Part shown: positions 2-24,518 of the stretch, one piece after another
Position numbering within the stretch: the first letter of the stretch is position 1
Layout: every line of letters starts with the position of its first letter
From: Nemertoderma westbladi
Lineage: Eukaryota > Animalia > Xenacoelomorpha
Length of the DNA: 51,080 nt
NCBI GenBank assembly: GCA_032718475.1
Contig: JAUCBJ010003254.1
Coordinates: forward strand, 1-51,080
Direction of reading: 5' to 3'
Made by a program: the position numbers and the translations under genes
Notes under the pieces: model-generated
Databases searched by the model: none
What the model was told of the DNA's origin: nothing
What the model saw: only the letters and a program-made list of their open reading frames with translations

Positions 2-2548
2 AGATAAACGTGTTTCATTATTAATGGAGAAATGTTGAAAATCATGATCTTCACTCCAACGAAAGATTCCCTTAAAACTACTCTCAGAAGTAAAAGCACT
101 TTTACTTAATGCACAATGAAGATAATAATTATCTTTCACCAATGGGAATGGTATACCTCTGCCGTTATTATTTGGTTTACTTATAACGTATATGTTAGAA
201 TCTTCCATATAATCAATACTACGAATAGAGAAGCAACCTGGAATGAGTGCCTCCAGCAGTTTAGCTGCTTGGGTCTCTATTGGTTCATCTTCCAAATCTA
301 ATTCTCTATGAACATCTTCCAATTTCTCACGAAGATTAGTTACATACATTCCCCTTTGCTTTGCTGTACATCCAATAAATACAACATTCTTAAGGTATTT
401 GAGAAATATAGATTGTACAGGAGTCTTATGTTTATCTGCATTAAGAATACTAAGCATGATACGACAATGCATGACTGAATATGATACCATCTGTAAACGA
501 AGTCCATCTGGACATGGTAAATCTGGTTCTATGTTAATTTTCCAAGACTTTCTTCCAATAGGTATAGATGGAAGTATAAGAGGCATTTCATCCTGATAGA
601 TATCCTTGAAAGATAAGTTTTCAGATTCAGTCTCTTCAGTACCCTTGTTTAAAATTCTATCATGAATCTTAAAGCAGTCACTGATTTCCATATAAGTACT
701 ACCGTGTAAACTTTCGCGAATTATAGCATTTTCTGGAAGATCCCAATATTCCAGGAGTCTATCAATATATACCTTAGCAACATGTCGTCGACCATGACGG
801 ACATATTCCAGTACATCGGGACGATACTCCAGAGTGAGTCTATTAGACTCATCCAATGCAAGGTAAGGCTCGCTAACCTGATAATATATAGGGTCAAGAT
901 CGACCCAACAAGACGACAATCCATTATAGTTTCCCATGGCTTTAATAGTGCGAAAACCATGTTGATATGTTCCTTGGCGTGCAGTGCGCAATATATGTGG
1001 AGATATAGTTGCCATTGAAAATATATCTTGATCTGTTACAGGATTGTCAGGGGATGCAGGATTGTTTGGGAGATGGAAAAACTCCTTATTTGTACACTTG
1101 TGTTTCTTGCATATTAGGATGGACAACCCTTTGTCGGGATCGACAACCATACCCCCTGTTGCCTCTTTACCAAGTTCCTTGAACGAATAAGGCCAGTCTA
1201 GTCGAAAAGACTTTACGTGTTCAGGTTTAGCATTGAATATCTTAGGAATAGGAAAGCTATTTGCAAGGAAGTGATTAAAGCTTAATGGTTTACATTCCTC
1301 GATATACTGGGTGCAACCAAGACCACATACAACACTAGGATAGTAGCCCTCATTAAGAAGTTTTACTAACTTTCCAATATCTAGATCATTCATGGTATTT
1401 TTGTACACCATAAGTTCCTGGGTAAAGTCATTCACCACTGTCTTAGAAGGTTGAAGGTGTTGGCTGTTGATAATAAACCTCCAGCTGTCCCTCAATGTCT
1501 CAGGAAGCAAGTCCAGTAAATCGGAAGGTTTACCTAAGAATCCAGGAACTTTATTCATAAGACCACTATATATAAATGATGGCCAGCCACAACTCCAAAG
1601 AATTTGACTCTTTTCCGACCTTTTCAAATATGTGGCACATTCTTTGCAAAGAACATAATCATATTGATGAGATTGCAGGAGATATCCATATTCACGATTA
1701 CAAGTTTTATTTGACAATCGTAGATCAAGTGGATATGAAGATGTTTTGATACGTCGGCAATTTTCACATACATTTTCATTATGAAGGATTACTATGTCAT
1801 TGCCATCAATATCCATTGCTTCCTGATCATCATCATCCTCACTATCTGGCTCATCGTCACTACTATCTGACTCTTCATCAATGATTTCTGGAACCTCAAA
1901 GTTACGCATAGAATCATACTGAAGAGCAGCCTCATCCTCAAAATCACTCCAATCTAAAGCATCATCGCACTCAAGGTTTACTTCTGGTTGCAAAGCAGCT
2001 GGTTCTGCATTTGGAGATGCTGCAGTTGGTTGTTCTGTATTCCTAGATGTTGCAGTCGGATGGAGTGGTATTGGATTTATATTTGATGAACCTTGATCCA
2101 TTGACTGAAAACCATAATAATGTTGATGCTCATGGTGATGAGCAATCAAAACCTCAGGTGTACCAGGCATGCCTACGTGCTGAAAATGGATTCGACCAGA
2201 AATAGATTCTGAAGTAAGAACCACAAATAATCTACGATAGACTAAGCCAAGAGCTTCCAATATAATAGAATTACCAAAAACAGATTGATTAGTCAACTGA
2301 TTGACCAAATCATCATAAGTACGTGGTTCATACTCAGATGGACAATATTTAGGTGAAAATTTATCCTTATTGGAACGAAGAAATGTTTTTGCCCTTATCC
2401 TCATATCCCTTGGACATTCTGCTATTGTAGGATCAGAAATAAGGATTGCATTAAACATACAATTCCCATCACCTCGTACATCTTTAAGGATTAGGCCCTT
2501 AGAATTAGCTACCCTCTCGAATGCAGCACGAACATTTGTCTGTAGAGC
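2..2548 (-). CDS. Exon 13 (open past the left edge, ~849 codons): intact OTU cysteine protease domain, acidic tract, CxxC...CxxC and further Cys-rich region; candidate Helitron-like giant protein
   Basis: Acceptor TTATTATTATAG| with AG at 2550-2549. Manual translation ALQTNVRAAFERVANSKGLILKDVRGDGNCMFNAI...FGNSIILEAL...HQHYYGF (Cys codon 2459-2461, His codon 2120-2122), then EESDSSDDEPDSEDDDD, CENC...CKEC, WSCGWPSFIY, CGLGC. I found no stop down to base 2; the ORF is probably missing from the track because it has no stop inside the window. Confidence 0.9.
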
Positions 2549-3094
2549 CTATAATAATAAATATATAATTATACATTATATATAATAATTATTTATTGCC
2601 ATATAAATCATTTATTGCTATAAAAATTAATATATACAATAATTATTTATTACTGCTTATTATTCAATGCTTCGGTAATTACTTAGATCCAAAGTAATTA
2701 TTTACTGCAGAAACATATATTTATTGTTGCAAAAATAAATATAGCAGCTAAAATAATTATTTACTTGATTAATAATTATTAATTTCTGAAATAATATGTA
2801 TGCTAAATTGATATAATTCCTTATTGCTGCAATATTTAATTAATAGTGCCATGCCATATAGAATAAAAAGATACTGTATTTCTAGAGTAACGTAACATAT
2901 GACATAGTAACATATTATATAATAGTGTATGAACCATGCCAAAAGGTTACATATTAATACAGCTAAACAGCTGTTGTATAAAATTAAACAATATGATGAT
3001 AGTGGAATAAGGAATAATTATTGTTGAATTGTATATCTGTTGAATGTATGCATCTGTCAGGTAAGCTCTTCAAGATATCAGAATCAAATGTGAA

Positions 3095-3202
3095 GTTAGT
3101 TGATCCAGTTGAGTTGTAATAGTTAGTTGATCCAGTTGAGGTGTATTAGTTAGTTGATCCAGTTGAGTTGTATTAGTTAGTTGATCCAGTTGAGTTGTAT
3201 TA
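3095..3202. repeat. 4 x 27-bp tandem repeat
   Basis: Unit GTTAGTTGATCCAGTTGAGTTGTATTA, four near-identical copies. Confidence 0.9.
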
Positions 3203-3323
3203 ATATCAATTATTTATAAAGATGTATAACAGCCTATCTATACTAATTGTAAAATTTACATTATAAATTCATATATAGAAATACATAATGTAATAAATAA
3301 GATATGAATGTAATAAAAGTAGT

Positions 3324-3360
3324 TACTTACCTGGCACAGGGGTTAACCATGATCAATGAA
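3324..3360 (+). pseudogene. U1 snRNA 5' fragment (3'-truncated)
   Basis: TACTTACCTGGCACAGGGGTTAACCATGATCAATGAA matches the metazoan U1 5' end (ATACTTACCTGGC, stem I, GATCA loop I). AT-rich sequence follows, with no further U1 stems or Sm site. Confidence 0.7.
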
Positions 3361-4058
3361 TGTATATAGATTAATGCTGGTCAATGATTAGTTATTATAA
3401 AAAATGCTGTCTAATAAATAATTCCTGTAAAAAAAATACTATTCAAATTACAGGACATGATAAAGTGATGAATTTATTTTAATGATATGCTAATTAATGA
3501 TATGATTATGCTATATGATATGCTAATATTAATGATATGTTCATGAAGATGATATAATGAAATAATTTAATTTGGGGGGTTGTGCTATAGTTGTGATGAG
3601 CTATATAGAGAGTGTCCATTGGGTCTAGTTTCTTAGCATATAGTGTAATATAGGCAAATGACAATGTGTATCATGTGCATGTATGTTAGTATGTTTATAG
3701 TCCTTATGGATTTCAAAAATATTATTTGGAAACCCAACAACTAGAATGAAACATTGTTAGAAAAAATCAAAAAGTAGCTTTTTAAGTAATGGTATAAATT
3801 AATATTAAAGAAATCCATGCCTTAAGTTACTGACATTGGTTATAATTTTCAAAAATAAAGGTTAATTAATTAAAGACGTTTTTAGTGATTAAGCCCATGT
3901 TATACTATATGCTTCACTGACATGTGCCCAGCCAACAACATTAATAATATATATCATCTGATTCCGGGCAGAATTCATTTTGTGAAAATTTATAATAAAC
4001 AAAAAAAATATAAACAGATTTATTTCATTTTTTACATTTATTTTGTGTTTCTTTGAAT

Positions 4059-7000
4059 GTCAGACTGTCTGTCTGTTTGAGTGTATGTCAAGTCTGTCTG
4101 TATGAATATCGATCCAGTCTCTGTCTGACTGTCGGTGCTGTCTGACTGAGTGCTGTCTGCCTGTCTATGGGCTATGTTTGTCTGTCTGTTGGCCATGTCT
4201 GTCTGTCTGTTGGCCATGTCTGTCTGTCTGTCGGTCCTGTCTGTCTCACTGTTGGTCCTGGCTAGTTATACAGAAAGACAGGACCTACAATCAGACACAC
4301 AGGTGCGACAAACAAAAACACAGGTCCGACAAACAGACAGACTAGACATCAGACCGGATCGATATTCAAACAGGACCGACTGTCACAGAGACAGCCACAA
4401 GAGTGATAGTCAGACAGACCGACCGACAGTCAGACAGACGGTCAACAGACAGACAGGACCTACAGTCAGTCAGACAGACAGGACCTACAGTCAGTCAGAC
4501 AGGACCTACAGTCAGACAGCCACAGGAGTGACAGTCACAGACATACCGACAGTCAGACAAGACAGACAATGTCAGACAATATACAGCACCTACAATCAGA
4601 CAGACATGACCACCGGTCATACAGAACCGACAGTCAAACAGCCACATGACTGATAGTCAGACAGACCTAGTCAGACAGACAGACAGACATGATCACCAGT
4701 CATAAAGGACCGACAGTCAAACAGCCACATGACTGATAGTCAGACCCGACAGACAGAACCGACAGTCAGACAACAGACTGGAACTACAGTCAGACAGAAA
4801 CATCATGTCTGTCTGTCTGTCTGACTGTCAGTTACACTCACTATCAGTCCTGTATAAATGTCTGACTGTCAGTCCAGTCTGTCTGTCCGACTATAGGTCC
4901 TGTCTGTCTGTATGACTGGTTTCATGTCTGTCTGACTGTCGATCCTGTCTGTAGTTATAACTGTCTGTATGACTGAGTTCCTGTCTGTATGACTATCGGT
5001 CCTGTCTATATGATCGATCCTGTCTGTCAATCCTGTCTATCTAACTGTATAGGCAATTTACTATTATAATATTCTCGGGTTATGCTAGTTGCTATATGCA
5101 TTGACACATATCTATGTCTGTATAACTGGAGGTCCTGGTGTCTGCATTGTCTGACTGTCAGTCCTGTCTACCTATCTGAATGTCCGTGGGTCTTCTGACT
5201 GTCTGACTGCCGATACTGTGTCTGACTGTAGGTCCTGTCTGTCTGTCGGGTCAATCAGACTCACTTTCGGTCCTGTCTATCTATCTAAATGTAGGTCTTG
5301 AGTGTCTGACTGTCAGTAACACTCACTATCGGTCCTGTATAAATGTCTGACTGTCGGTCCAGTCTGTCTGTCCGACTATAGGTCCTGTCTGTCTGTATGA
5401 CTGGTTTCATGACTGTCTGACTGTCGATCCTGTCTGTAGTTACTAACTGCCTGTATGACTGTAGTTCCTGTGTGTATGACTGTCGGTCGTCTATATGATC
5501 GATCCTGTCTGTCGATACTGTCTATCTGACTGTATATAGGCAATTTACTATTATAATATTCTCGGGTTATGCTAGTTGCTATATGCATTGACACATATCT
5601 ATGTCTGTATAACTGGAGGTCCTGGTGTCTGCATTGTCTGGAATGTCCGTGGGTCTCCTGACTGTCTGACTGCCGATACTGTGTCTGTCTGTAGGTCCTG
5701 TTGGGTCAATCAGACTCACTGTCGGTCCTGTCTATCTGTCTGAATGTAGGTCATGAGTGTCTGACTGTCAGTAACACTCACTATCGGTCCTGTATAAATG
5801 TCTGACTGTCAGTCCAGTCTGTCTGTCCGACTATAGGTCCTGTCTGTCTGTATGACTGGTTTCATGTCTGTCTGACTGTCGATCCTGTCTGTAGTTATAA
5901 CTGTCTGTATGACTGAGTTCCTGTCTGTATGACTGTCGGTCCTGTCTATATGATCGATCATGTCTGTCAATCCTGTCTATCTAACTGTATAGGCAATTTA
6001 CTATTATAATATTCTCGGGTTATGCTAGTTGCTATATGCATTGACACATATCTATGTCTGTATAACTGGAGGTCCTGGTGTCTGCATTGTCTGACTGTCA
6101 GTCCTGTCTACCTATCTGAATGTCCGTGGGTCTCCTGACTGTCTGACTGCCGATACTGTGTCTGACTGTAGGTCCTGTCTGTCTGTCGGGTCAATCAGAC
6201 TCACTTTCAGTCCTGTCTATCTGTCTGAATGTAGGTCTTGAGTGTCTGACTGTCAGTAACACTCACTATCGGTCCTGTATAAATGTCTGACTGTCAGTCC
6301 AGTCTGTCTGTCCGACTATAGGTCCTGTCTGTCTGTATGACTGGTTTCATCTGTCTGACTGTCGATCCTGTCTGTAGTTATTGTCTGTATGACTGAGTTC
6401 CTGTCTGTATGACTGTCGGTCCTGTCTATATGATCGATCCTGTCTGTCAATCCTGTCTATCTAACTGTATAGGCAATTTACTATTATAATATTCTCGGGT
6501 TATGCTAGTTGCTATATGCATTGACACATATCTATGTCTGTATAACTGGAGGTCCTGGTGTCTGCATTGTCTGACTGTCAGTCCTGTCTACCTATCTGAA
6601 TGTCCGTGGGTCTCCTGACTGTCTGACTGCCGATACTGTGTCTGACTGTAGGTCCTGTCTGTCTGTCGGGTCAATCAGACTCACTTTCAGTCCTGTCTAT
6701 CTGTCTGAATGTAGGTCTTGAGTGTCTGACTGTCAGTAACACTCACTATCGGTCCTGTATAAATGTCTGACTGTCAGTCCAGTCTGTCTGTCCGACTATA
6801 GGTCCTGTCTGTCTGTATGACTGGTTACATGTCTGTCTGACTGTCGATCCTGTCTATAGTTACTAACTGTCTGTATGACTGTAGTTCCTGTGTGTATGAC
6901 TGTCGGTCGTCTATATGATCGATCCTGTCCCTGTCTAGGCAATTTACTATTATAATATTCTCGGGTTATGCTAGTTGCAATATGCATTGACACATATATA

Positions 7001-7880
7001 TCTAAGTCGGTATAACTGGAGGTCCTGGTGTCTGCATTGTCTATCAGTCTTGTCTATCTATCTGAATGTCCGTGGGTCTCCTGACTGTCTGACTGCCGAT
7101 ACTGTGTCTGACTTTAGGTCCTGTTTGTCTGTCGGGTCAATCAGACTCACTGTCGGTCCTGTCTATCTGTCTGATTTGAATGTAGGTCCTGACTGTCAAG
7201 TCAGACTCAGTATCGGTCCTATCTATCTGTCTAACTAGCGGTCTGACCGTTTGTCTCAATTGTTTGACTGTCAGTCCTGTCTACTGTCTGACTGTGGGTC
7301 CTGTCTATCTGTCTTAACTGTCTGTCTTTGTCACTATCAACCCTTTCTGTCTGCATTATCTGACTGCCAGACCTGTTGTCCGACTGTCGGCCCTGCATGT
7401 CCGACTGTCGGCCCTGCATGTGTGACTGGCGGCCCTGCATGTGTGACTGGCGGCCCTGTTTGTCTGAATTGTCTGACTGTTAGCCCTGTCTACTGTCCGA
7501 CTGTTGGTATTGTCTGCCTGTACGTCTCAACTTCATGTCGGAATATCTTTTTGTTTGACTTTTTCTTTTTGAGGTCGTTTTGTTTCTGTATGTCTCTCTG
7601 ACTGTCGGTCCTGTCTGTCTGCGTCACTCAGTCCTGTCTCTCTGCCTAACTGTATGACTGTCTGCCCTGTCCGTCCGTCCGACTGTTGATGCAGTGCAAT
7701 TGTCTGAAAATCGTGTAAGGTCAGCATGTCTTACTTTCGTCGATCCTGTCCCTGACTGTTGGTACTGACCATTTCTGTTACTATGTCTGACACGCTCCTG
7801 TCCAATTGTCTGACAGTCGGTCGTGTCCATTTGTCTCACAGTCGGTCCTATCCGTCTGTCTGACAATACTGTATGTCAAT
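4059..7880. repeat. Degenerate (TGTC/GACA)n-derived repeat field with an inverted segment (~4270-4800) and a ~450-490-bp higher-order tandem repeat (~4820-7180)
   Basis: Dense CTGT/TCTG motifs, CAGA orientation at ~4270-4800. Landmark GGCAATTTACTATTATAATATTCTCGGGTTATGC recurs at ~5052, 5539, 5992, 6472 and 6938. Confidence 0.9.
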
Positions 7881-8006: not shown

Positions 8007-8468
8007 CATTGATGGGACCCCGCCCGATGTTGAAGGCTGCGGAATGGCACTAGAAGGGTGAGTTGGTGCAGCCGGCGGGCGGGGTGTTGGTATCGATGGG
8101 CATGGTGTTCTAGTACGTAAAGTTCTGGGTGACGCACTGGGTGCGTGTCGCGTTGCACAAGGCGCAGTTGGCAACACTCCAGGTACGGAACTTGAAGTGT
8201 TAACAACCGCTGTTCTCGACTTATCGCCGGATGGACAAGGTATCGAGTTAAGTCCAACATCCGGTGTTGGACTTGATATAATATCCCTGCGTGATAAATC
8301 AACGTAAGGAGACAGTCGCCGCGATATAAATCGGGGAGGAGTATCCTTGCCAGACTTAGAATTAAGTCGGCGAATAGAGTCCTCGTCGAACCGAAATATG
8401 GGAGAATCTGTACGAGGACTCATAGTTGGGGTGGAGAAAGGGGTACAGGTTCCTGAACCAGTTGGATC
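8007..8468 (-). CDS. Exon 12 (154 aa, Pro/Ser/Thr/Arg-rich linker)
   Basis: TTTTAG|GAT...ATG|GTAAGT; 462 nt, phase 0-0; DPTGSGTCTPFSTPTMSPRTDSP...GGVPSM; GC-rich island; overlaps track ORF 7887..8423. Confidence 0.8.
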
Positions 8469-8529: not shown

Positions 8530-11500
8530 ATGTGAAACGCAACTTACTCCTTAGTTGACTTAGTTGGATGGGCAACTTAGTTGACTTAGATGGATGTGCA
8601 ACCTAGTTGACTTAGATGGATGTGCAACCTAGTTGACTTAGATGGATGTGCAACCTAGTTGACTTAGATGGATGTGCAACCTAGTTGACTTAGATGGATG
8701 TGCAACCTAGTTGACTTAGATGGATGTGCAACCTAGTTGACTTAGATGGATGTGCAACCTAGTTGACTTAGATGGATGTGCAACCTAGTTGACTTAGATG
8801 GATGTGCAACCTAGTTGACTTAGATGGATGTGCAACCTAGTTGACTTAGATGGATGTGCAACCTAGTTGACTTAGATGGATGTGCAACCTAGTTGACTTA
8901 GATGGATGTGCAACCTAGTTGACTTAGATGGATGTGCAACCTAGTTGACTTAGATGGATGTGCAACCTAGTTGACTTAGATGGATGTGCAACCTAGTTCA
9001 CTTAGATGGATGTGCAACCTAGTTCACTTAGATGGATGTGCAACCTAGTTGACTTAGATGGATGTGCAACCTAGTTGACTTAGATGGATGTGTAACCTAG
9101 TTGACTTAGATGGATGTGCAACCTAGTTGACTTAGATGGATGTGCAACCTAGTTGACTTAGATGGATGTGCAACCTAGTTGACTTAGATGGATGTGCAAC
9201 CTAGTTGACTTTGGATGTGCAACTTAGTTGACTTAATGTGCAAGTTGGATGTGCAACTTAGTTGACTTAGTTGGATGTGCAACTTAATTGACTTAGTTGG
9301 ATGTGCAACTTAATTGACTTAGTTGGATGTGCAACTTAATTGACTTAGTTGGATGTGCAACTTAGTTGACTTAGTTGGATGTGCAACTTAGTTGACTTAG
9401 TTGGATGTGCAACTTAATTGACTTAGTTGGATGTGCAACTTAATTGACTTAGTTGGATGTGCAACTTAATTGACTTAGTTGGATGTGCAACTTAGTTGAC
9501 TTAGTTGGATGTGCAACTTAGTTACTTAGTTGGATGTGCAACTTAGTTACTTAGTTGGATGTGCAACTTAGTTACTTAGTTGGATGTGCAACTTAGTTAC
9601 TTAGTTGGATGTGCAACTTAGTTACTTAGTTGGATGTGCAACTTAGTTGACTTAGTTGGATGTGCAACTTAATTGACTTAGTTGGATGTGCAACTTAGTT
9701 GACTTAGTTGGATGTGCAACTTAGTTGACTTAGTTGGATGTGCAACTTAGTTGACTTAGTTGGATGTGCAACTTAGTTGACTTAGTTGGATGTGCAACTT
9801 AGTTGACTTAGTTGGACGAGCAACTTAGTTGAATGTGCAACTTAGTTGACTTAGTTGAATGTGCAACTTAGTTGACTTAGTTGAATGTGCAACTTAGTTG
9901 ACTTAGTTGAATGTGCAACTTAGTTGACTTAGTTGAATGTGCAACTTAGTTGGATGTGCAACTAAGTTGGATGTGCAACTTAGTTGGATGTGCAACTTAG
10001 TTGGATGTGCAACTAAGTTGGATGTGCAACTAAGTTGGATGTGCAACTTAGTTGGATGTGCAACTTAGTTGGAAGTGCAACTTAGCTGGATGTGCAACTT
10101 AGTTGGATGTGCAACTTAGTTGCGATGTGCAACTTAGTTGACTTAGTTGGATGTGCAACTTAGTTGACTTAGTTGGATGCGCAACTTAGTTGGATGTGCA
10201 ACTTAGTTGACTTAGTTGGATGTGCAACTTAGTTGACTTAGTTGGATGTGCAACTTAGTTGCCTTAGCTGGATGTGCAACTTAGTTGACTTAGTTGGATG
10301 TGCAACTTAGTTGACTTAGTTGGATGTGCAACTTAGTTGACTTAGTTGGATGTGCATCTTAGTTGACTTAGTTGGATGTGCAACTTAGTTGACTTAGTTG
10401 GATGTGCATCTTAGTTGACTTAGTTGGATGTGCAACTTAGTTGAATGTGCAACTTAGTTGACTTAGTTGAATGTGCAACTTAGTTGACTTAGTTGAATGT
10501 GCAACTTAGTTGACTTAGTTGAATGTGCAACTAAGTTGGATGATGTGCAACTAAGTTGGATGTGCAACTTCGTTGGATGTGCAACTTCGTTGGATGTGCA
10601 ACTTCGTTGGATGTGCAACTTCGTTGGATGTGCAACTTCGTTGGATGTGCAACTTCGTTGAATGTGCAACTTCGTTGGATGTGCAACTTCGTTGGATGTG
10701 CAACTTCGTTGGATGTGCAACTTCGTTGAATGTGCAACTTCGTTGAATGTGCAACTTCGTTGGATGTGCAACTTCGTTGAATGTGCAACTTAGTTGGATG
10801 TGCAACTTCGTTGAATGTGCAACTTAGTTGGATGTGCAACTTCGTTGAATGTGCAACTTAGTTGGATGTGCAACTTAGATGGATGTACAACTTAGTTGGA
10901 TGTGCAACTTAGATGGATGTGCAACTTAGTTGGACTTAGTTGGATGTGCAACTTGCTAGACTTGGATGTGCAACTTGCTAGACTTGGATGTGCAACTTGC
11001 TAGACTTGGATGTGCAACTTGCTAGACTTGGATGTGCAACTTGCTAGACTTGGATGTGCAACTTGCTAGACTTGGATGTGCAACTTGCTAGACTTGGATG
11101 TGCAACTTGCTAGACTTGGATGTGCAACTTGCTAGACTTGGATGCGCAACTTGCTAGACTTGGATGCGCAACTTGCTAGACTTGGATGCGCAACTTGCTA
11201 GACTTGGATGTGCAACTTGCTAGACTTGGATGTGCAACTTGCTAGACTTGGATGTGCAACTTGCTAGAATTGGATGTGCAACTTGCTAGACTTGGATGTG
11301 CAACTTGCTAGACTTGGATGTGCAACTTGCTAGACTTGGATGTGCAACTTGCTAGACTTGGATGTGCAACATACTTGACTTGGATGTGCAACATACTTGA
11401 CTTGGATGTGCAACATACTTGACTTGGATGTGCAACTTACTTGACTTGGATGTGCAACTTGCTTGACTTGGATGTGCAACTTACTTGCTTGACTTGGATG

Positions 11501-14500
11501 TGCAACTTACTTGCTTGACTTGGATGTGCAACTTACTTGCTTGACTTGGATGTGCAACTTACTTGCTTGACTTGGATGTGCAACTTACTTGCTTGACTTG
11601 GATGTGCAACTTACTTACTTGACTTGGATGTGCAACTTACTTGACTTGGATGTGCAACTTACTTGACTTGGATGTGCAACTTACTTGACTTGGATGTGCA
11701 ACTTACTTGACTTGGATGTGCAACTTACTTGACTTGGATGTGCAACTTACTTGACTTGGATGTGCAACTTACTTGACTTGGATGTGCAACTTACTTGACT
11801 TGGATGTGCAACTTACTTGACTTGGATGTGCAACTTACTTGACTTGGATGTGCAACTTACTTGACTTGGATGTGCAACTTACTTGACTTGGATGTGCAAC
11901 TTACTTGACTTGGATGTGCAACTTACTTGACTTGGATGTGCAACTTACTTGACTTGGATGTGCAACTTACTTGACTTGGATGTGCAACTTACTTGACTTG
12001 GATGTGCAACTTACTTGACTTGGATGTGCAACTTACTTGACTTGGATGTGCAACTTACTTGACTTGGATGTGCAACTTACTTGACTTGGATGTGCAACTT
12101 ACTTGACTTGGATGTGCAACATACTTGACTTGATGTGCAACATACTTGACTTGATGTGCAACATACTTGACTTGATGTGCAACATACTGGACTTGATGTG
12201 CAACTTACTGGACTTGATGTGCAACTTACTTGACTTGCATACTTGACTTGCAACTTACTTGACTTGCAACTTACTTGACTTGTATGTGCAACTTAATTGA
12301 CTTGTATGTGCAACTTACTTGACTTGTATGTGCAACTTACTTGACTTGTATGTGCAACTTACTTGACTTGGATGTGCAACTTACTTGACTTGGATGTGCA
12401 ACTTACTTGACTTGGATGTGCAACTTACTTGACTTGGATGTGCAACTTACTTGACTTGGATGTGCAACTTACTTGACTTGGATGTGCAACTTACTTGACT
12501 TGGATGTGCAACTTACTTGACTTGGATGTGCAACTTACTTGACTTGGATGTGCAACTTACTTGACTTGGATGTGCATGTGCAACATTCTTGACTTGATGT
12601 GCAACAGTGCAACATACTTGACTTGATGTGCAACTTACTTGACTTGGATGTGCAACTTACTTGACTTGGATGTGCAACTTACTTGACTTGGATGTGCAAC
12701 TTACTTGACTTGGATGTGCATGTGCAACATTCTTGACTTGATGTGCAACAGTGCAACATACTTGACTTGATGTGCAACAGTGCAACATACTTGACTTGAT
12801 GTGCAACATACTTGACTTGATGTGCAACATACTTGACTTGATGTGCAACATACTTGAGTTGATGTGCAACATACTTGACTTGATGTGCAACATACTTGAC
12901 TTGATGTGCAACATACTTGACTTGATGTGCAACATACTTGACTTGATGTGCAACATACTTGACTTGATGTGCAACATACTTGACTTGATGTGCAACATAC
13001 TTGACTTGATGTGCAACATACTTGACTTGATGTGCAACATACTTGACTTGATGTGCAACATACTTGACTTGATGTGCAACATACTTGACTTGATGTGCAA
13101 CATACTTGACTTGATGTGCAACATACTTGACTTGATGTGCAACATACTTGACTTGATGTGCAACATACTTGACTTGATGTGCAACATACTTGACTTGATG
13201 TGCAACATACTTGACTTGATGTGCAACATACTTGACTTGATGTGCAACATACTTGACTTGATGTTCAACATACTTGACTTGATGTGCAACATACTTGACT
13301 TGATGTGCAACATACTTGACTTGATGTGCAACATACTTGACTTGATGTGCAACTTACTTGACTTGATGTGCAACTTACTTGACTCGATGTGCAACTTACT
13401 TGACTCGATGTGCAACTTACTTGACTCGATGTGCAACTTACTTGACTCGATGTGCAACTTACTTGACTCGATGTGCAACTTACTTGACTCGATGTGCAAC
13501 TTACTTGACTCGATGTGCAACTTACTTGACTCGATGTGCAACTTACTTGACTCGATGTGCAACTTACTTGACTCGATGTGCAACTTACTTGACTCGATGT
13601 GCAACTTACTTGACTTGATGTGCAACTTACTTGACTTGATGTGCAACTTACCTGACTTGATGTGCAACTTACCTGACTTGATGTGCAACTTACTTGACCC
13701 TTAACTTGATGTGCAACTTACTTGACCCTTAACTTGATGTGCAACTCACATAACTTGATGTGCAACTCGCGACTTGACTTGATGTGCAACTTACTTGACT
13801 TGATGTGCAACTTACTTGACTTGATGTGCAACTTACTTGACTTGATGTGCAACTTACTTGACTTGATGTGCAACTTACTTGACTTGATGTGCAACTTACC
13901 TGACTTGATGTGCAACTTACCTGACTTGATGTGCAACTTACTTGACTTGATGTGCAACTTACTTGACTTGATGTGCAACTTACTTGACTTGATGTGCAAC
14001 TTACTTGACTTGATGTGCAACTTACTTGACTTGATGTGCAACTTACTTGACTTGATGTGCAACTTACTTGACTTGATGTGCAACTTACTTGACTTGATGT
14101 GCAACTTACTTGACTTGATGTGCAACTTACTTGACTTGATGTGCAACTTACTTGACTTGATGTGCAACTTTCTTGACTTGATGTGCAACTTACTTGACTT
14201 GATGTGCAACTTACTTGACTTGATGTGCAACTTACTTGACTTGATGTGCAACTTACTTGACTTGATGTGCAACTTTCTTGACTTGATGTGCAACTTTCTT
14301 GACTTGATGTGCAACTTACTTGACTTGATGTGCAACTTACTTGACTTGATGTGCAACTTACTTGACTTGATGTGCAACTTACTTGACTTGATGTGCAACT
14401 TACTTGACTTGATGTGCAACTTACTTGACTTGATGTGCAACTTACTTGACTTGATGTGCAACTTACTTGACTTGATGTGCAACTTACTTGACTTGATGTG

Positions 14501-15375
14501 CAACTTACTTGACTTGATGTGCAACTTACTTGACTTGATGTGCAACTTACTTGACTTGATGTGCAACTTACTTGACTTGATGTGCAACTTACTTGACTTG
14601 ATGTGCAACTTACTTGACTTGATGTGCAACTTACTTGACTTGATGTGCAACTTACTTGACTTGATGTGCAACTTACTTGACTTGATGTGCAACTTACTTG
14701 ACTTGATGTGCAACTTACTTGACTTGATGTGCAACTTACTTGACACTTGATGTGCAACTTACTTGACACTTGATGTGCAACTTACTTGACACTTGATGTG
14801 CAACTTACTTGACACTTGATGTGCAACTTACTTGACACTTGATGTGCAACTTACTTGACACTTGATGTGCAACTTACTTGACACTTGATGTGCAACTTAC
14901 GTGACACTTGATGTGCAACTTGATGTGCAACTTACTTGAGACTTGATGTGCAACTTACTTGAGACTTGATGTGCAACTTACTTGACACTTGATGTGCAAC
15001 TTACTTGACACTTGATGTGCAACTTACTTGACACTTGATGTGCAACTTACTTGACACTTGATGTGCAACTTACTTGACACTTGATGTGCAACTTACTTGA
15101 GACTTGATGTGCAACTTACTTGAGACTTGATGTGCAACTTACTTGACTTGAAGTGCAACTTACTTGACTTGATGTGCAGCTTACTTGACTTGATGTGCAG
15201 CTTACTTGACTTGATGTGCAACTTACTTGACTTGATGTGCAACTTACTTGACTTGATGTGCAACTTACTTGACTTGATGTGCAACTTACTTGACTTGATG
15301 TGCAACTTACTTGACTTGATGTGCAACTTACTTGACCTGATGTGCAAATTACTTGACTTGATGTGCAAGACTTGA
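8530..15375. repeat. Intronic satellite with GATGTGCAAC core; homogeneous blocks of 26-, 25-, 17-, 22-, 21- and 23-bp units
   Basis: Units read directly: GATGGATGTGCAACCTAGTTGACTTA (26), GTTGGATGTGCAACTTC (17), TTGGATGTGCAACTTGCTAGAC (22), TTGATGTGCAACTTACTTGAC (21), CTTGATGTGCAACTTACTTGACA (23). Confidence 0.97.
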
Positions 15376-15401
15376 TAGTTTACTGACTTTGTATAATATA
15401 C

Positions 15402-15775
15402 TAGGTGACTGGTGACTTCGTATATTACACTAGGTGACTTGGTATATTACACTAGGTGACTTGGTATATTACACTAGGTCACTTGGTATATTACACTAGG
15501 TGACTTGGTATATTACACTAGGTGACTTGGTATATTACACTAGGTGACTTGGTATATTATACTAGGTGACTTGGTATATTACACTAGGTGACTTGGTATA
15601 TTACACTAGGTGACTTGGTATATTATACTAGGTGACTTGGTATATTACACTAGGTGACTTGGTATATTACACTAGGTGACATGGTATAGTATACTAGCCG
15701 ACTTGGTATAGTTTACTGGGTGATTTGGTATAGTTTACTAGGTGACTATACTTGATATATTATACTAGGTAAGTT
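15402..15775. repeat. 22-bp minisatellite
   Basis: Unit GGTATATTACACTAGGTGACTT, about a dozen good copies plus degenerate flanks. Confidence 0.92.
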
Positions 15776-15816: not shown

Positions 15817-16152
15817 CCCAATTACACGACCCCCTCGCTCCCGTCGTGGACGAACGATAATCGGTTTTGGACGACGGGATCGAGTGCGAGGGGGGGTCTC
15901 CATCGCGGACATCTGTGAGAATGGTGCTACGATGTCGGGCGTCGATTGGTTTGTCTCAGAATAAACGCCAGGAGAAACACCCACGACAGGGGAGAAGGTG
16001 GGTGTAGATCCCGCTAGTGGTGAGAAGATGGGACTTCCCGCTCGAGGGGAGATCGAAGGTATCACCAAAGGTGAGAGCCTAGGGAGCATGGAGCCTCCCA
16101 AAATGATACGAGATCGCAACGCATCTAAAGGGATAGGCGAAGCGGTGCTATC
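15817..16152 (-). CDS. Exon 11 (112 aa, SP/TP-rich with basic C-terminal end)
   Basis: TTTTTAG|GAT...GGG|GTGAGT; 336 nt, phase 0-0; DSTASPIPLDALRSR...RPRRERGGRVIG. Confidence 0.8.
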
Positions 16153-16648: not shown

Positions 16649-16762
16649 AATGGAAGGTGTTGATTCTCCATGGCCGAACTCTATAAGCGGTGTAATACAG
16701 ACCTCCGATACAGCCGGGGTCATATCAATATCCTCTGTCTGCTCCCTAGACTCTTGCAGGAC
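16649..16762 (-). CDS. Exon 10 (38 aa, diverged class-C exon)
   Basis: GTTTAG|GTC...ATT|GTTAGT; 114 nt; VLQESREQTEDIDMTPAVSEVCITPLIEFGHGESTPSI; start and acceptor context resemble exon 7. Confidence 0.7.
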
Positions 16763-16899: not shown

Positions 16900-17900
16900 C
16901 TGGTTTCAAACTTCCTGTTGCATGTGGGTGCAACGGGAGGGAATAACATGTGGGTGGAAAGGGGGGGAATTTCATGTGGGTGTAACGGGATGGACTGGAT
17001 AGTGTGCAAAGGGAAGTTAAACATTGGTGGATCAGGATTGAGTTGCAGGTGGGGTATGGGAGGGAGTTACAGATAATTGGAACGGGAAGGAGTTGCAAGT
17101 GAGTGAAACGTTTTTAGTTACAGTTGGAATGGGATGGAGTTACAGGGGGTGATACGGGATAGAGTTACATGTGGAGTAGATGGAACGGGATAGAGTCAGA
17201 GGTGGGTGGAACGGGTGCGAGTTACAATTGTTTCGAACAGGAGAGAGTTTTACAGGTGATTGGAATGGGAGGGAGTTACAAGTGTGTAACGAGACGGAGG
17301 GGAGGGGGGGAGTTACAAGTGGGTAGAAAGAAAACGAGAGACAGGTGGATGGAAGGGGAGAGTGGGGGAGTTACAGGACAGTGGAACGGGAGGGAGTTAC
17401 ATGTGAAAAGAAAGGGAACGAGTTTCCGTTGGGTAGAAGGTGGGGGGGGGGGGGGGGGGGGGGGCTACAGGATGATGGAATGGCATGGTGTTTAGGTGGG
17501 TGAAACAGAGGAGGGGAATTGCAGGATGGTGTAAGTTACAGGTGGGTAGAAAGGGAACGAGTTACAGACAGATGGGTGGAAAGTCAATGAGTTACAGGTG
17601 GATGGAAAGGGGACGGTTTACAGGTGGGAGAAACGGGAGGGAGTTACAGGTGGGAGAAACGAGAGGGAGTTACGGTGGGGGGGGGGGGGGGAAATTTACC
17701 AATGAGTTGAATAAGGTAAAGTTGAATAGGAATGAATTTAAACATGTGGAGTGAAACAGGAGTGAGTTGAATCAGGTTGAGTGGAACCGGAGTGAGTTCA
17801 ATCAGGTGAGTAACAGGATGGGAAGAGGAGTGATTTAAATCACGTCTATTGGAACAGGACAGGAGTGAGTTGAATCATGTGGAGTGGAAAAGGAGTGAGT
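16900..17900. repeat. Degenerate G-rich repeat (~25-bp unit, then ~30-bp unit) with poly-G tracts
   Basis: Recurring GAGTTACAGGTGGGTGGAACGG-like units, long G runs near 17442-17464 and 17677-17691, then GAGTGAGTTGAATCA...GTGGAAC units. Confidence 0.8.
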
Positions 17901-18849: not shown

Positions 18850-18975
18850 AAGAGGCGGCTGAAGAGCCGAACGGCCGGACACAGTGGGGAGAACGACAGG
18901 CAGAGATACGGCGGTGAAAACTTCCGTAGCTACCGAAATCTGATCCTCCTCTCTTACTAAAGCTTCCTGCAGGAC
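18850..18975 (-). CDS. Exon 7 (42 aa, class C, copy 2; an alternative in-frame acceptor would start it at 18966)
   Basis: GTTTAG|GTC CTG CAG|GAA...CTT|GTAAGT; VLQEALVREEDQISVATEVFTAVSLPVVLPTVSGRSALQPPL. Confidence 0.75.
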
Positions 18976-19405: not shown

Positions 19406-19744
19406 CATCCGCTCTGGGTCATTCTGGCGGCCGTGCTGGGCAGCACTGCTGCCGATTCCTACGTCAACGTCTACCATTTCGACGTCCTCTCTGACGATTC
19501 CCGCGTCAACGTTTACCATTTCGACGTCAACGTCTACCATTTCGACGTCCTCTCTTAGAAATCCCTCTCTCTCTCTCTCTCTTTCTATGAGAAGACCTTC
19601 GTCCATGGTCTGAGCTGTAATGTCTATGAGAACATGGTATTTTCTCATGACGCAGGTTGTTCTGGGGTGGTATTTCTTCTTGCCGCAACGCCCCTGACAG
19701 TAGGAACAAATAGGGCATCCCTTACGTTTGCGGGCTTTCTTGAA
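19406..19744 (-). CDS. Exon 6 (113 aa, zinc knuckle 2 plus acidic repeats)
   Basis: TTTCAG|TTC...ATG|GTGAGT; 339 nt; FKKARKRKGCPICSYCQGRCGKKKYHPRTTCVMR...HGRQNDPERM. Confidence 0.85.
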
Positions 19745-19930: not shown

Positions 19931-20104
19931 AATCTGGGGGCGGCAATACGGACGGCCGGACTGGATTGGATCCGCTGCTCTACTTCGCATAGAATCCACG
20001 GATCCAAGACTACAAACATCCGAACCTTCGGACATCGATTCTCCTATCATCGCTATGGCGTCGTCTAGAATCGATAGGGGTTGTTTCCTCCTGCAGGACG
20101 TATC
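19931..20104 (-). CDS. Exon 5 (58 aa, class D, copy 1)
   Basis: TTCCACAG|GAT...ATT|GTAAGA; 174 nt; DTSCRRKQPLSILDDAIAMIGESMSEG...SGRPYCRPQI. Confidence 0.75.
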
Positions 20105-20342
20105 CTGTGGAAAACGGTAATAAAGAAATAAATAATACCGGACCGGTACGAGTGAAAATATATCTTATTAAATTACAATTACAAACTATAAAGGAATAAA
20201 ATAATATACAGATATTTAGATTAATCTTAGAGACCGGGTATTAAATACTATTGAGTCTCTATAAGCTATACTGGAACCGAGAATCGCTTTATGAACGGCC
20301 CAACATTATTTATACAAATATTATATTATTAAATAAACTTAC

Positions 20343-20462
20343 AAGAGGCGGCTGAAGAGCCGAACGGCCGGACACAGTGGGGAGGACGACAGGCAGAGAT
20401 ACGGCGGTGAAAACTTCCGTAGCTACCGAAATCTGTTCCTCCTCTGTTGCAGCAATAGCTTC
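20343..20462 (-). CDS. Exon 4 (40 aa, class C, copy 1)
   Basis: GTCCTACAG|GAA...CTT|GTAAGT; 120 nt; EAIAATEEEQISVATEVFTAVSLPVVLPTVSGRSALQPPL. Confidence 0.75.
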
Positions 20463-20789
20463 CTGTAGGACATAAACAATAATAAAACAACAGTAGATAT
20501 TTACAACAGATAAAATAAACAAGCAACTCCTTAGTAATATGATATCAGCCCTAATATAAATACGGCAATTACGTTTCCATAAAATTAATATATATAATAT
20601 CTTAAGATTGTATGAGACCTCAAGGTAAATAAGTTAAAATTAAATTATTAAATGGTGACAATCAAAATAACATTTTATAAAATAAACAGATATAAATCAT
20701 ACAGTACGGTCATCCGTTATACACACTGTTATACAATGGAGTCCCAAATACAGTGAAGTGATATTGTATATGGGATAGAGTTAACTAAC

Positions 20790-21269
20790 CATCGGTTCCG
20801 ACTCTGTAAGGCGGCCGGACTTGGTCGACATCGACCTCGGAATGAACGCGACGTATCTGTCACCGTCCAATCCGATATGGATGGCCCCACCTCGTCTCCT
20901 TGGGGGGGCGCAGTAACAACTGGGCGCGTTTCGTTGCTGCGCCCGATGGACCGTAATCTCAATCTCCTCCATGTCTCTTATGGCCTCCAGGTTGATGTCG
21001 TTAACCTGGCAATCATCCGCTGCTAGTGAAAGTAAGTAGGCGGCGAACGATTGCGGCCCTCCCGTACGGAAGAGCCACTGCCGGGAATACTTGGCCGTTC
21101 TCAGCGACATGAAGTCGGCCACGTGTTGTTTCAGATAGGAGGCTGATATCCCCCAGCCCGCAGCCGTTGAAACCGCAGATAACTGCGCTAGTGGATGGTT
21201 GGGTATGTCGACCACATCCAGGTTGAGATCGTCCGCGACCTGGCGGAACCAACTCGTTGAATTGGCGAC
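20790..21269 (-). CDS. Exon 3 (160 aa): degenerate, probably inactive OTU-fold domain
   Basis: TATTTAG|GTC...ATG|GTTAGT; 480 nt. Aligns by eye to the exon 13 OTU: FRQVADDLNLDVVDIPNHPLAQLSAV vs FERVANSKGLILKDVRGDGNCMFNAI; NDINLEAI vs NSIILEAL; IHIGLDGDRYVAF vs VLIAHHHEHQHYYGF. Confidence 0.8.
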
Positions 21270-21349
21270 CTAAATAATTTAAAAATAATAGATAGAAGAG
21301 AAAAAATAGAAGACAAATGTAACTAATATGTAAGATTCAATGAATTAAT

Positions 21350-23413
21350 GGGGGAGGGGCCGGGGTGAAGAGTCAGGAGAGACCCTGGCTGGAGTGCTGG
21401 GAGGGTGGTCGGGGTGAAGAGTCAGGAGAGACCCTGGCTGGAGTGCTGGGAGGGTGGTCAGGGTGAAGAGTCAGGAGAGACCCTGGCTGGAGTGCTGGGA
21501 GGGTGGTCGGGGTGAAGAGTCAGGAGAGACCCTGGCTGGAGTGCTGGGAGGGTGGTCGGGGTGAAGAGTCAGGAGAGACCCTGGCTGGAGTGCTGGGAGG
21601 GTGGTCGGGGTGAAGAGTCAGGAGAGACCCTGGCTGGAGTGCTGGGAGGGTGGTCGGGGTGAAGAGTCAGGAGAGACCCTGGCTGGAGTGCTGGGAGGGT
21701 GGTCAGGGTGAAGAGTCAGGAGAGACCCTGGCTGGAGTGCTGGGAGGGTGGTCGGGGTGAAGAGTATGGAGAGACCCTGGCTGGAGTGCTGGGAGGGTGG
21801 TCGGGGTGAAGAGTCTGGAGAGACCCTGGCTGGAGTGCTGGGAGGGTGGTCGGGGTGAAGAGTCTGGAGAGACCCTGGCTGGAGTGCTGGGAGGGTGGTC
21901 GGGGTGAAGAGTCTGGAGAGACCCTGGCTGGAGTGCTGGGAGGGTGGTCGGGGTGAAGAGTCAGGAGAGACCCTGGCTGGAGTGCTGGGAGGGTGGTCGG
22001 GGTGAAGAGTCAGGAGAGACCCTGGCTGGAGTGCTGGGAGGGTGGTCGGGGTGAACAGTCAGGAGAGACCCTGGCTGGAGTGCTGGGAGGGTGGTCGGGG
22101 TGAAGAGTCAGGAGAGACCCTGGCTGGAGTGCTGGGAGGGTGGTCGGGGTGAAGAGTCAGGATAGACCCTGGCTGGAGTGCTGGGAGGGAGGTCGGGGTG
22201 AAGAGTCAGGATAGACCCTGGCTGGAGTGCTGGGAGGGTGGTCGGGGTGAAGAGTCAGGAGAGACCCTGGCTGGAGTGCTGGGAGGGTGGTCGGGGTGAA
22301 GAGTCAGGAGAGACCCTGGCTGGAGTGCTGGGAGGGTGGTCGGGGTGAAGAGTCAGGAGAGACCCTGGCTGGAGTGCTGGGAGGGTGGTCGGGGTGAAGA
22401 GTCAGGAGAGACCCTGGCTGGAGTGCTGGGAGGGTGGTCGGGGTGAAGAGTCAGGATAGACCCTGGCTGGAGTGCTGGGAGGGAGGTCGGGGTGAAGAGT
22501 CAGGATAGACCCTGGCTGGAGTGCTGGGAGGGTGGTCGGGGTGAAGAGTCAGGAGAGACCCTGGCTGGAGTGCTGGGAGGGTGGTCGGGGTGAAGAGTCT
22601 GGAGAGACCCTGGCTGGAGTGCTGGGAGGGTGGTCGGGGTGAAGAGTCAGGAGAGACCCTGGCTGGAGTGCTGGGAGGGTGGTCGGGGTGAAGAGTCAGG
22701 AGAGACCCTGGCTGGAGTGCTGGGAGGGTGGTCGGGGTGAAGAGTCAGGAGAGACCCTGGCTGGAGTGCTGGGAGGGTGGTCGGGGTGAAGAGTCAGGAG
22801 AGACCCTGGCTGGAGTGCTGGGAGGGTGGTCGGGGTGAAGAGTCAGGAGAGACCCTGGCTGGAGTGCTGGGAGGGTGGTCGGGGTGAAGAGTCAGGAGAG
22901 ACCCTGGCTGGAGTGCTGGGAGGGTGGTCGGGGTGAAGAGTCAGGATAGACCCTGGCTGGAGTGCTGGGAGGGAGGTCGGGGTGAAGAGTCTGGAGAGAT
23001 CCTGGCTGGAGTGCTGGGAGGGTGGTCGGGGTGAAGAGTCTGGAGAGACCCTGGCTGGAGTGCTGGGAGGGTGGTCGGGGTGAAGAGTCAGGAGAGACCC
23101 TGGCTGGAGTGCTGGGAGGGTGGTCGGGGTGAAGAGTCAGGATAGACCCTGGCTGGAGTGCTGGGAGGGAGGTCGGGGTGAAGAGTCTGGAGAGATCCTG
23201 GCTGGAGTGCTGGGAGGGTGGTCGGGGTGAAGAGTCTGGAGAGACCCTGGCTGGAGTGCTGGGAGGGTGGTCGGGGTGAAGAGTCTGGAGAGATCCTGGC
23301 TGGAGTGCTGGGAGGGTGGTCGGGGTGAAGAGTCTGGAGAGACCCTGGCTGGAGTGCTGGGAGGGTGGTCGGGGTGAAGAGTCAGGAGAGACCCTGGGTA
23401 GAGTGATGGGAGG
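21350..23413. repeat. 49-bp G-rich minisatellite, ~42 copies, in intron 2
   Basis: Unit GGGGTGAAGAGTCAGGAGAGACCCTGGCTGGAGTGCTGGGAGGGTGGTC; period 49 (21362, 21411...). Confidence 0.97.
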
Positions 23414-23531
23414 TATATACTGTATATATTGGTTCACCTAATCGTTTTATGCAGTAATTGTATTAGAAAACCACCGGAACAAAATATAAAATGACAAAGT
23501 AGGTCCACATAATTATATATGATAAACTAAC

Positions 23532-23690
23532 CGGGGTTGGTGGTGTTGGCGGACGGGTAGTACGTCGCCGTGGAGGCGATCTCAACGCGTCGGCGTAGGA
23601 TGGAGATGTGGGGGGACTCTGGCGTCCCACCGTGACGTCGGGCGTCTCGCGTCCTACCGCTACCTCCGGAGTCTCGCGACCCAACTCCAC
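23532..23690 (-). CDS. Exon 2 (53 aa, xGRETP repeats, Pro/Arg-rich)
   Basis: TTTCTAG|GTG...CCG|GTTAGT; 159 nt; VELGRETPEVAVGRETPDVTVGRQSPPTSPSYADALRSPPRRRTTRPPTPPTP. Confidence 0.8.
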
Positions 23691-24269
23691 CTAGAAAGTA
23701 GCAATTTAAAATAATGACACGGAGAGATATATACTTATACTGACTTCAAACAACAAAAAGAGATAGGTTAGGATAGGATACAATAACACATTATAACGAA
23801 ACGATACTAAAGAAATGACCGCACTTCACAGCAACAATAAGGGGTACGTAGGATTTATAGTAATTTAATTAGTATATTAGCACAACATAATACTACAACA
23901 GTAAACAATTTATTATGTTACATTGGATCGAAGTCGTTCTCCTTAAAGCACCGCCCACAGCACATACTTATAGTTATACATTTATAATGGAGCTTTACCA
24001 AAGAAGGTGGAAGGTAAACAGGGAGGTAGACAATGGCTGGTAAAAAGACAATATTGAGTTACAATGGTGGGTTAACAAGATTAAAAGTCAAACTAAGATT
24101 GGTTATCAAGGAGGGTAACTCACGATGGCAGATCTCCTGGTAGATAAGTGGGTTAAATAGTGTGCAGATAATGGTGTGTTTACCAGGTACAGTATGCAGG
24201 CCGGACAAACAGTGTATTAAGCATGCCTCTGTTTAGAATAATACTTAATATAATGTAAATAAAACTTAC

Positions 24270-24518
24270 ACTGGATTCCACCGCGTGTAAACGGCCGGTC
24301 TGATGGACATCGGCGCTTCCCGGAATCTCTACATGAATACCAATGGGTTGGAGACCTGCGCCACCTAGCTCCAACTCTCCACCGGCATCCATGTTCGCGG
24401 CATCTATCCCTTTCCGCAGATGTTCGATGCGCATAGGGCAGGTTGCCATGTTGTGTCGCTTTTTGCCACAGCGACCTTGGCAGTAAGAACAAACACATTG
24501 TTGTTTGCGTTTTGGCAT
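24270..24518 (-). CDS. First coding exon (83 aa, NLS-like PKRK plus zinc knuckle 1)
   Basis: TTTTTTATAG|ATAACGTC-ATG (acceptor 8 nt before the ATG, implying an upstream non-coding exon); MPKRKQQCVCSYCQGRCGKKRHNMATCPMR...TGRLHAVESS|GTAAGT. Confidence 0.8.

Follow-up and report, generated by a model that had tools for sequence, protein, structure and literature searches.

The window analysed here, a 51,080-nucleotide (nt) contig of Nemertoderma westbladi (JAUCBJ010003254.1, assembly GCA_032718475.1), carries on its minus strand a chain of 13 predicted exons that begins at 24518 and leaves the window at base 2 with its reading frame still open. We consider it likely that these exons are spliced into the N-terminal half of a giant rolling-circle transposase, predicted at ~3,550 amino acids, from a deep-branching Helitron-like family, and that the HUH-Y2 Rep, PIF1 helicase and SLX1-like GIY-YIG domains of this copy lie within about 5.2 kb to the left of base 1. 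The family, referred to below as RepHel-GIY-YIG, is represented by database proteins to which we gave P numbers.

Thirteen predicted exons in one stop-free frame

The original prediction had joined 13 GT-AG exons into a single stop-free frame. When the minus strand was rebuilt from 24518 to base 2, identical codon counts were recovered, giving 1842 codons with zero stops; all 12 introns run GT..AG, all 12 are in phase 0, and their acceptors are pyrimidine- or AT-rich. The exons, all on the minus strand, are as follows.

24270..24518, minus: exon 1, 83 codons; ATG, basic stretch, CCHC zinc knuckle 1 (CSYC-x-GRCG...H-x4-C)
23532..23690, minus: exon 2, 53 codons; Pro/Arg/Thr-rich linker
20790..21269, minus: exon 3, 160 codons; domain resembling OTU in which both catalytic residues, Cys and His, are missing (putative pseudo-OTU)
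20343..20462, minus: exon 4, 40 codons; recent duplicate of exon 7
19931..20104, minus: exon 5, 58 codons; recent duplicate of exon 8
19406..19744, minus: exon 6, 113 codons; CCHC knuckle 2, preceded by a basic stretch and followed by an acidic repeat
18850..18975, minus: exon 7, 42 codons
18443..18616, minus: exon 8, 58 codons
17926..18171, minus: exon 9, 82 codons; basic stretch, CCHC knuckle 3
16649..16762, minus: exon 10, 38 codons; may be related to exons 4 and 7 as an ancient paralog
15817..16152, minus: exon 11, 112 codons; Ser/Pro/Arg-rich linker
8007..8468, minus: exon 12, 154 codons; Ser/Pro/Thr-rich linker
2..2548, minus: exon 13, 849+ codons, running off the window; OTU domain, then an acidic linker, the N-terminal domain of the family and the first part of the pre-Rep region

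Several features of the DNA agree with this chain. The GC content of exons 1-12 was 49-67%, compared to 10-35% in their 60-nt flanks. Outside tandem arrays, the minus strand of positions 1-24600 holds 16 GT(A/G/T)AGT sites, 11 of which coincide exactly with predicted donors (the twelfth donor is GTAAGA), and the control count on the plus strand was nine. The chosen frame was the sole open frame on the minus strand for 8 of the 12 upstream exons, with a second open frame present in the other 4. Exon 13 needs an upstream exon, since its first Met (residue 31) lies past the OTU catalytic Cys30 and no Met precedes that residue. At the other end of the chain, an AG acceptor stands 8 nt before the first ATG and suggests a further exon upstream of exon 1, probably non-coding, with a possible donor near 24793. 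Coding sequence makes up 5,526 of the 24,517 bp, and about 14 kb of the 19 kb of intron is tandem array. A strong unused donor was also seen at 3330 with an acceptor about 94 nt upstream (3331-3424, minus strand), possibly a poison exon or a chance occurrence; a small coding exon ending at this donor was ruled out, the interval being AT-rich with in-frame stops.

Exon 13 contains the two domains by which the protein can be placed.

2099..2509, minus: OTU cysteine-protease domain, with Cys30 (GDGNC) and His143 (HY) present
620..1795, minus: Cys-rich N-terminal domain of the RepHel-GIY-YIG family, exon-13 residues 252-643, about 390 amino acids (aa)

The OTU domain was recognized by Pfam above the cut-off (PF02338, E 7e-5), and its structure model gave weak matches to OTUD5, OTUD3 and Otu2; exon 13 thereby has what defines an OTU deubiquitinase, a catalytic Cys and His in a predicted OTU fold. 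The Cys-rich domain was modelled confidently from 80 sequences (predicted local distance difference test 86.7, predicted template modelling score 0.83), and a Foldseek search of this model against PDB and BFVD returned zero matches at E<=0.001. An HNH identity was considered for it and rejected, as the scattered Foldseek matches at E 2-5 probably reflect the CxxC..CxxC zinc site. With exon 13 as query, HMMER found 244 relatives at E<=0.001, the best being P0002 (3e-49 over residues 13-722), and its alignment with P0002 (residues ~250-1110) remains collinear as far as the window edge, in a part of P0002 that lies N-terminal to Rep; the earlier proposal that the exons encode the N-terminal half of a Helitron-type protein is borne out to this extent. 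The motifs quoted with that proposal were located in exon 13 (CxxC...CxxC at 261/301, WPSFI at 322, LPETLRDSW at 348, CGLGC at 408), and exon 13 carries the family signature of CxxC..CxxC, WP, CPxGC and HxPxxP together with shared invariant columns. The window protein was nested within the family tree, the trimmed alignment of which included residues beyond the N-terminal domain for some rows. On the strength of its N-terminal domain, we assign the window protein to the unnamed RepHel-GIY-YIG family. An ESM Atlas search with exon-13 residues 245-849 gave no usable match, two word-indexed protein searches with exon 13 returned one match and none, respectively, and DUF6570 was not among the Pfam matches for exon 13.

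Relatives, the modular head and copy number

Full-length relatives have the domain order OTU, Cys-rich N-terminal domain, HUH-Y2 Rep, PIF1 helicase and SLX1-like GIY-YIG. In 19 scanned relatives of at least 1,900 aa, Pfam detected PIF1 in 18, Helitron_like_N in 16 and GIY-YIG in 10, with P0029 yielding none, and HUH, YxxKY and Walker A motifs were visible in most long relatives; the likeness to the N-termini of PIF1-like helicases that the original prediction had put forward thus holds. Of 78 proteins of at least 1,500 aa, a set whose counts are not independent because it includes near-identical cluster members and proteins found via the C-terminal half of P0002, 71 had the N-terminal domain. 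Walker A was present in 63 of these 71 (the other 8 end no more than 1,062 aa from the domain), and the HUH pattern was matched in 55, with variant HUH motifs in 9 of 12 re-examined proteins. A GIY-YIG profile, built from part of the same protein set, matched 50 of 57 proteins of at least 2,150 aa, and the best PDB matches of the relatives' GIY-YIG region were SLX1 nucleases. Measured from CPxGC, the relatives place HUH at 890-961 aa (10/11), Walker A at 1530-1615 aa and the protein end at 2119-2261 aa (both 11/11). Since this spacing is tightly conserved in the 11 relatives, we predict HUH at 1.35-1.55 kb, Walker A at 3.3-3.5 kb and the stop codon at 5.0-5.5 kb to the left of base 1, and a full protein of about 3,520-3,660 aa. 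Named chordate members, annotated merely as uncharacterized proteins, are P0019 and P0153 (Myxine glutinosa) and P0015 (Styela clava). A narrower family-alignment search for related loci returned a single 1.7-kb contig, and the literature searched, whose scope left out most subscription papers and Repbase reports, held no description of a RepHel-GIY-YIG family or of an intron-rich member.

What is new here is that exons 1-12 look like duplicated N-terminal modules, with three CCHC knuckles and a dead second OTU. Exons 1, 6 and 9 each contain a basic stretch and a CSYC-x-GRCG...H-x4-C knuckle. In pairwise comparison, their proportion of nonsynonymous differences (pN) was 0.31-0.38 and that of synonymous differences (pS) 0.80-0.88 (saturated); the low pN/pS of 0.38-0.44 therefore indicates that the peptide is under constraint. 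Exons 4-6 and 7-9 form a duplicated block, in which exons 4/7, exons 5/8 and introns 4/7 are ~95-97% alike. Scored with a profile built from ten OTU domains of the family, exon 3 reached 10.8 bits, compared to at most 5.9 in 3,000 shuffles; its ESM Atlas score was 0.92, with OTU making up 26 of 30 matches, and its positions aligned to the OTU catalytic residues are not Cys/His, so that it looks like a catalytically dead second OTU. The Styela relative P0015 (XP_039257388.1) has an N-terminal basic CSYC...HN.RTC segment, then an OTU and then the family domain, and the knuckle matched it at 7.7 bits versus 3.7 for the best reversed control; knuckles of this kind also occur in P0027 and P0033, with scores that were weak and exceeded those of reversed controls. 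An optional knuckle/OTU head before the Cys-rich domain is a family feature, and the window protein has it. From the knuckles of P0015, P0027 and P0033 and the OTU likeness of exon 3 we infer that the head, 993 aa long, is native to the family, its knuckle-OTU module having been multiplied as symmetric exons were duplicated, and does not represent an unrelated host gene. Pfam returned nothing significant for exons 1, 3, 6, 9, 11 and 12. The head is long: CPxGC falls at residue 1401 of the window protein, against a median of 300 and a maximum of 719 among 54 relatives, about twice the longest. Since most relatives resemble single-ORF (open reading frame) calls, which are blind to spliced exons, the intron-rich form may be commoner than it appears. 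In P0043 and P0155 the OTU is C-terminal, after GIY-YIG, and the OTU module therefore moves within the family.

The relatives occur as near-identical copies on many contigs: P0069 (2,455 aa) has six members, ~99% identical, on large contigs, and other relatives form clusters of 5-16 members, intact and broken. The RepHel-GIY-YIG relatives behave as transposons. Within the same organism, comparison with read contigs covered window positions 1-2550, where contigs from four DNA runs (X1-X4, three studies) fell in every identity band down to below 90%. In run X1, 43 contigs aligned, 16 of which were less than 95% alike, and these contigs were too short to show flanks. Among 40 listed differences, which are the best supported of 189 rows, 25 were at third positions and 19 were synonymous, compared to 21% expected (P = 1.6e-4, calculated without a model of transition bias). 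Nine loose ends were translated by hand, and seven gave in-frame homologous peptides, such as LLRECLSGAT versus IIRESLHGST; some contigs of other copies carry 1-2 nt indels. Because of the synonymous excess and the in-frame homologous ends, at least one diverged coding paralog is read from these data as present in the same organism.

Surroundings, rival readings and mechanism

The introns and the DNA upstream of exon 1 are dominated by repeats, with one intact neighbouring ORF.

21361..23413: intron 2; 42 tandem copies of a 49-bp unit
16921..17894: intron 9; short, degenerate repeats with a purine/pyrimidine skew
8550..15747: intron 11; filled by tandem arrays with units of 26, 21 and 22 bp
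4121..7865: intron 12; repeats rich in GACA/TGTC, which are inverted internally and show a higher-order unit of 480 bp
24824..26348: 763-bp tandem duplication, 99.3% alike, just upstream of exon 1; likely promoter or 5' untranslated region
28027..28644, plus: SGNH/GDSL hydrolase ORF, intronless, intact, 205 aa, with GSS, GSND and DGIH blocks
27597..43190 and 43191..51080 (window end), plus: two head-to-tail units, each with a 175-bp segment, an SGNH gene or remnant, a 21-bp array and a 30-bp array

The intron 12 repeats, which we take to be reminiscent of DINE-1/HINE-type Helentron derivatives, may be a nested insertion. The 763-bp duplication contains ACCGGT-rich palindromes, and a similar ACCGGTCCGG word also precedes exons 5 and 8. 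The SGNH ORF is divergent from the 13-exon gene and lies 3.5 kb upstream of exon 1; a 5' remnant of an SGNH gene, 66% identical, was found at 43694-43920. The two head-to-tail units are possibly inside or adjoining the element: because the 21-mer that fills intron 11 recurs in them on the same strand, there are hints in the sequence that they share an element or compartment with the gene. Their 175-bp segments (27597-27771 and 43191-43365) are 97.7% identical, compared to 66-91% for neighbouring DNA, contain three CCAAT words and a GC box, and an 8-bp inverted repeat starts the first copy; the segment could be a promoter, a terminus or a small insertion. The hairpins at 27597 and 43191, considered as possible element ends, folded no better than shuffles (z 0.12 and -0.80). 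The 30-bp satellite at 30074-43188 and 47434-51080 has higher-order repeats of ~3 kb and long stop-free SVPSVSGVGE-like frames that are probably non-coding. Stop-free repeat units account for the long open frames of the 21-, 30- and 49-bp arrays, which were not accepted as genes. A GC-rich island at 44319-44727 (plus strand) holds an ATG-initiated, RG-rich frame of ~120 codons with a 90-bp internal duplication, and a 24-bp inverted repeat lies upstream of it (44074-44097/44280-44303); Pfam found nothing significant in ORFs at 44.3-44.8 kb. No telomeric repeat run occurs within the window, and Rfam and tRNA searches gave zero matches.

A number of observations weigh against a spliced, mobile Helitron-like gene. 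All splice junctions are predictions from DNA, the window contains none of the Rep, helicase and GIY-YIG core of this copy, and no convincing terminus was found in 24500-28800 or 43150-45650. The identity of exon 13 to relatives is just 23-34%, the FastTree support for its placement beside P0015 and P0002 was 0.81, and 7 of the 57 long relatives had no GIY-YIG match. In the head, the duplicates 4/7 and 5/8 showed no purifying signal (pN 0.054/0.045 versus pS 0.045/0.024, few changes), hhalign of exon 3 against the family profile gave 3.5% probability (E 0.012), and the knuckle match to P0015 is weak by itself (domain E 0.039). For the paralogs, the selected differences and simple null noted above count likewise, and of the nine loose ends one had a stop in exact register and one was open and dissimilar.

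Some of these points would suit an immobile host gene domesticated from a RepHel-GIY-YIG transposase, whole or in its N-terminal part, which had gained introns and host-like exons and taken up work in DNA repair or as a deubiquitinase that binds nucleic acid. Purifying selection and a span of 24.5 kb with twelve introns are host-gene traits, insects have genes with inactive deubiquitinase domains of helitron origin (PMC9741609), and no termini were seen in the stretches examined. We nevertheless regard domestication as unlikely, given diverged coding paralogs in the same organism's runs, multicopy relatives, and surroundings of satellites and the SGNH ORF with no ordinary host gene nearby; active Paramecium Helitrons are also satellite-filled (PMC13085455). 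Somewhat less probable still is a non-autonomous or truncated derivative moved in trans, with an intact N-terminal half and a Rep/helicase core deleted or broken past base 1: the relatives' clusters are rich in fragments, some contigs of other copies have the small indels described, and the massive satellite growth suggests relaxed length constraint, yet 1842 codons are open over 13 exons and exon 13 stays collinear with relatives to the window edge.

That all or some of exons 1-12 belong to a separate transcript or are spliced otherwise, with exon 13 starting from one or two nearby exons as in ~2,800-aa relatives, would explain the long introns 11 and 12 (7.3 and 5.5 kb), an N-terminal extension twice the longest of the 54 relatives, and the unused donor at 3330. 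We give this little credence, as exons 1-12 are stop-free and all in phase 0, exon 13 has no start of its own, its knuckles and OTUs recall the way P0015 begins, and spliced 5' exons would escape the single-ORF calls that most relatives resemble. It appears highly improbable that the gene is part of an endogenous virus with a large DNA genome or of a different class of transposon (Polinton, Teratorn-like, Penelope/Terminon). OTU, GIY-YIG and GDSL/SGNH domains are common to viruses and giant retroelements (PMC6431247); against this origin, all informative long relatives are Rep-PIF1 proteins, IMG/VR searched with the family alignment, P0002 and the SGNH ORF gave no relative, BFVD gave no fold match at E<=0.001, and the window has no capsid, polymerase, integrase or reverse transcriptase ORF.

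For the favoured reading, a spliced Helitron-like transposase, a working scheme can be proposed. Helitrons move by a scheme in which a tyrosine nicks the DNA, one strand is peeled off and a circle integrates. The spliced mRNA would yield one large protein, the Rep tyrosine of which would nick and bind the element end, with the PIF1 helicase displacing one strand and a circular intermediate integrating at a new site, by analogy with Helitrons (PMC6431247, PMC13085455). The SLX1-like GIY-YIG, in the slot of the Helentron AP endonuclease, might nick the target or resolve branched DNA. The active OTU could deubiquitinate the transposase or chromatin, or process a polyprotein, and may protect the protein against ubiquitin-driven degradation. 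A short knuckle-OTU head was likely expanded by tandem duplication of symmetric phase-0 exons; its three basic CCHC knuckles would likely serve nucleic-acid binding and nuclear import, the dead OTU is possibly a ubiquitin-binding module, and the linkers are probably disordered. Introns that tolerate ~14 kb of satellite would have inflated the element beyond 30 kb.

We advance a larger picture tentatively, as a possibility. In it, the element is a rolling-circle transposon that is still active, measures between 30 and more than 55 kb, and represents one more major lineage of Helitron-like elements, marked by its own N-terminal fold and an SLX1-type nuclease. Its transposase gene would have evolved a host-like structure of 13 exons and would grow by shuffling its own phase-0 exons (a triple zinc knuckle, and an active plus a dead OTU that target ubiquitin signalling of the host). 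With an SGNH hydrolase gene and over 30 kb of satellite on board, such an element would disperse satellite DNA in the genome of an animal. Among DNA transposons of eukaryotes, the largest measure 39-40 kb, for Helitrons and Polintons (PMC6431247). If it moves as a unit, the element would rival these and tie autonomous rolling-circle elements to satellite spread.

Comparison with known Helitron-like systems

The Helitron or Helentron label originally given to the gene stands as far as its rolling-circle kinship is concerned; the relatives, which have diverged deeply and carry an SLX1-like GIY-YIG at the C-terminus, are neither Helentrons nor canonical Helitrons. As in canonical Helitrons (HLE1; Helraiser, PDB 7LCC), an HUH-Y2 Rep is followed by PIF1 in the relatives, in which Pfam Helitron_like_N matches are weak (about 17-35 bits). 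The canonical HUH motif contains RG, and the relatives' HUH reads EFQ-x(3-6)-GNxPHxH, without it. Helitron-like elements have defined termini with a hairpin and make no target-site duplication; canonical ones begin with 5'-TC and close with CTRR-3', and Helentrons carry short subterminal inverted repeats and insert at T-T. P0002 matches Helraiser in the helicase only (E 3e-4, worse than cellular PIF1), the RepHel-GIY-YIG family profile scores Helraiser at 92 bits versus 102 bits for yeast PIF1, and the predicted protein is more than twice the length of Helraiser.

Helentrons (HLE2) encode a RepHel with a C-terminal AP endonuclease, often with an OTU upstream (PMC11417382, PMC4067079, PMC8788227), and DUF6570 is the HLE2 marker in HELIANO (PMC11417382). 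The relatives share with them an OTU upstream of Rep-PIF1 and a third, C-terminal nuclease, and internal tandem repeats are likewise common to both; unlike in Helentrons, that nuclease is an SLX1-like GIY-YIG and not an AP endonuclease, and the window copy has 12 introns and a modular head of ~1,000 aa. Among the Pfam matches of 49 distinct relatives there was neither DUF6570 nor Exo_endo_phos. Judged by these marker domains and the search scores of the relatives, the protein appears to fall outside both HLE1 and HLE2.

A third clade, in Paramecium, comprises Helitrons outside HLE1/HLE2 with transposases of 3,052-3,592 aa and satellites making up 50-75% of the element (PMC13085455), and resembles the window element in giant transposase and satellite filling. 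In Hel01Copy001, the one Paramecium copy read by eye, the HUH motif still has the form EFQERGxxHxH, and about 85 codons, with no GIY-YIG among them, follow the last helicase motif before the ORF closes (PMC13085455). The Paramecium ORFs are unspliced and inserted in telomeric repeats (PMC13085455), unlike the window gene, which has no telomeric run in its surroundings; a codon-word search for the HUH motif in the available Paramecium supplement gave zero matches (PMC13085455). A GIY-YIG in a Helitron-like element is shared with HelenSM92 of Sphagnum magellanicum, a 16-19-kb element classed as HLE2 in which the domain is ascribed to capture in one family (PMC11417382); the two were compared by description, and HelenSM92 alone was found to be so described in the literature parts available, GIY-YIG being mentioned in other contexts only in those of PMC12910113 and PMC3627910. 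Fish texim SGNH hydrolase genes are carried by Helitrons (PMC4021074), and the window likewise has an SGNH gene near Helitron-like coding sequence, likened to texim by domain only.

Helitron VTD domains are active deubiquitinases, the transposon OTUs in that source being untested (PMC9741609), and the active/dead OTU pair would allow a direct test of whether transposon OTU domains are deubiquitinases, a question left open there. Annotation based on ORFs would overlook the form seen in this copy, a transposase gene with 12 predicted introns and much satellite that resembles a host gene. Helitron classification so far comprises HLE1, HLE2 and the 2026 Paramecium clade. The RepHel-GIY-YIG family appears to add another lineage of wide distribution, with a tunicate and a hagfish in its named records; its accessory nuclease is of a different kind, and its domain of 390 aa had no fold match in PDB or BFVD.

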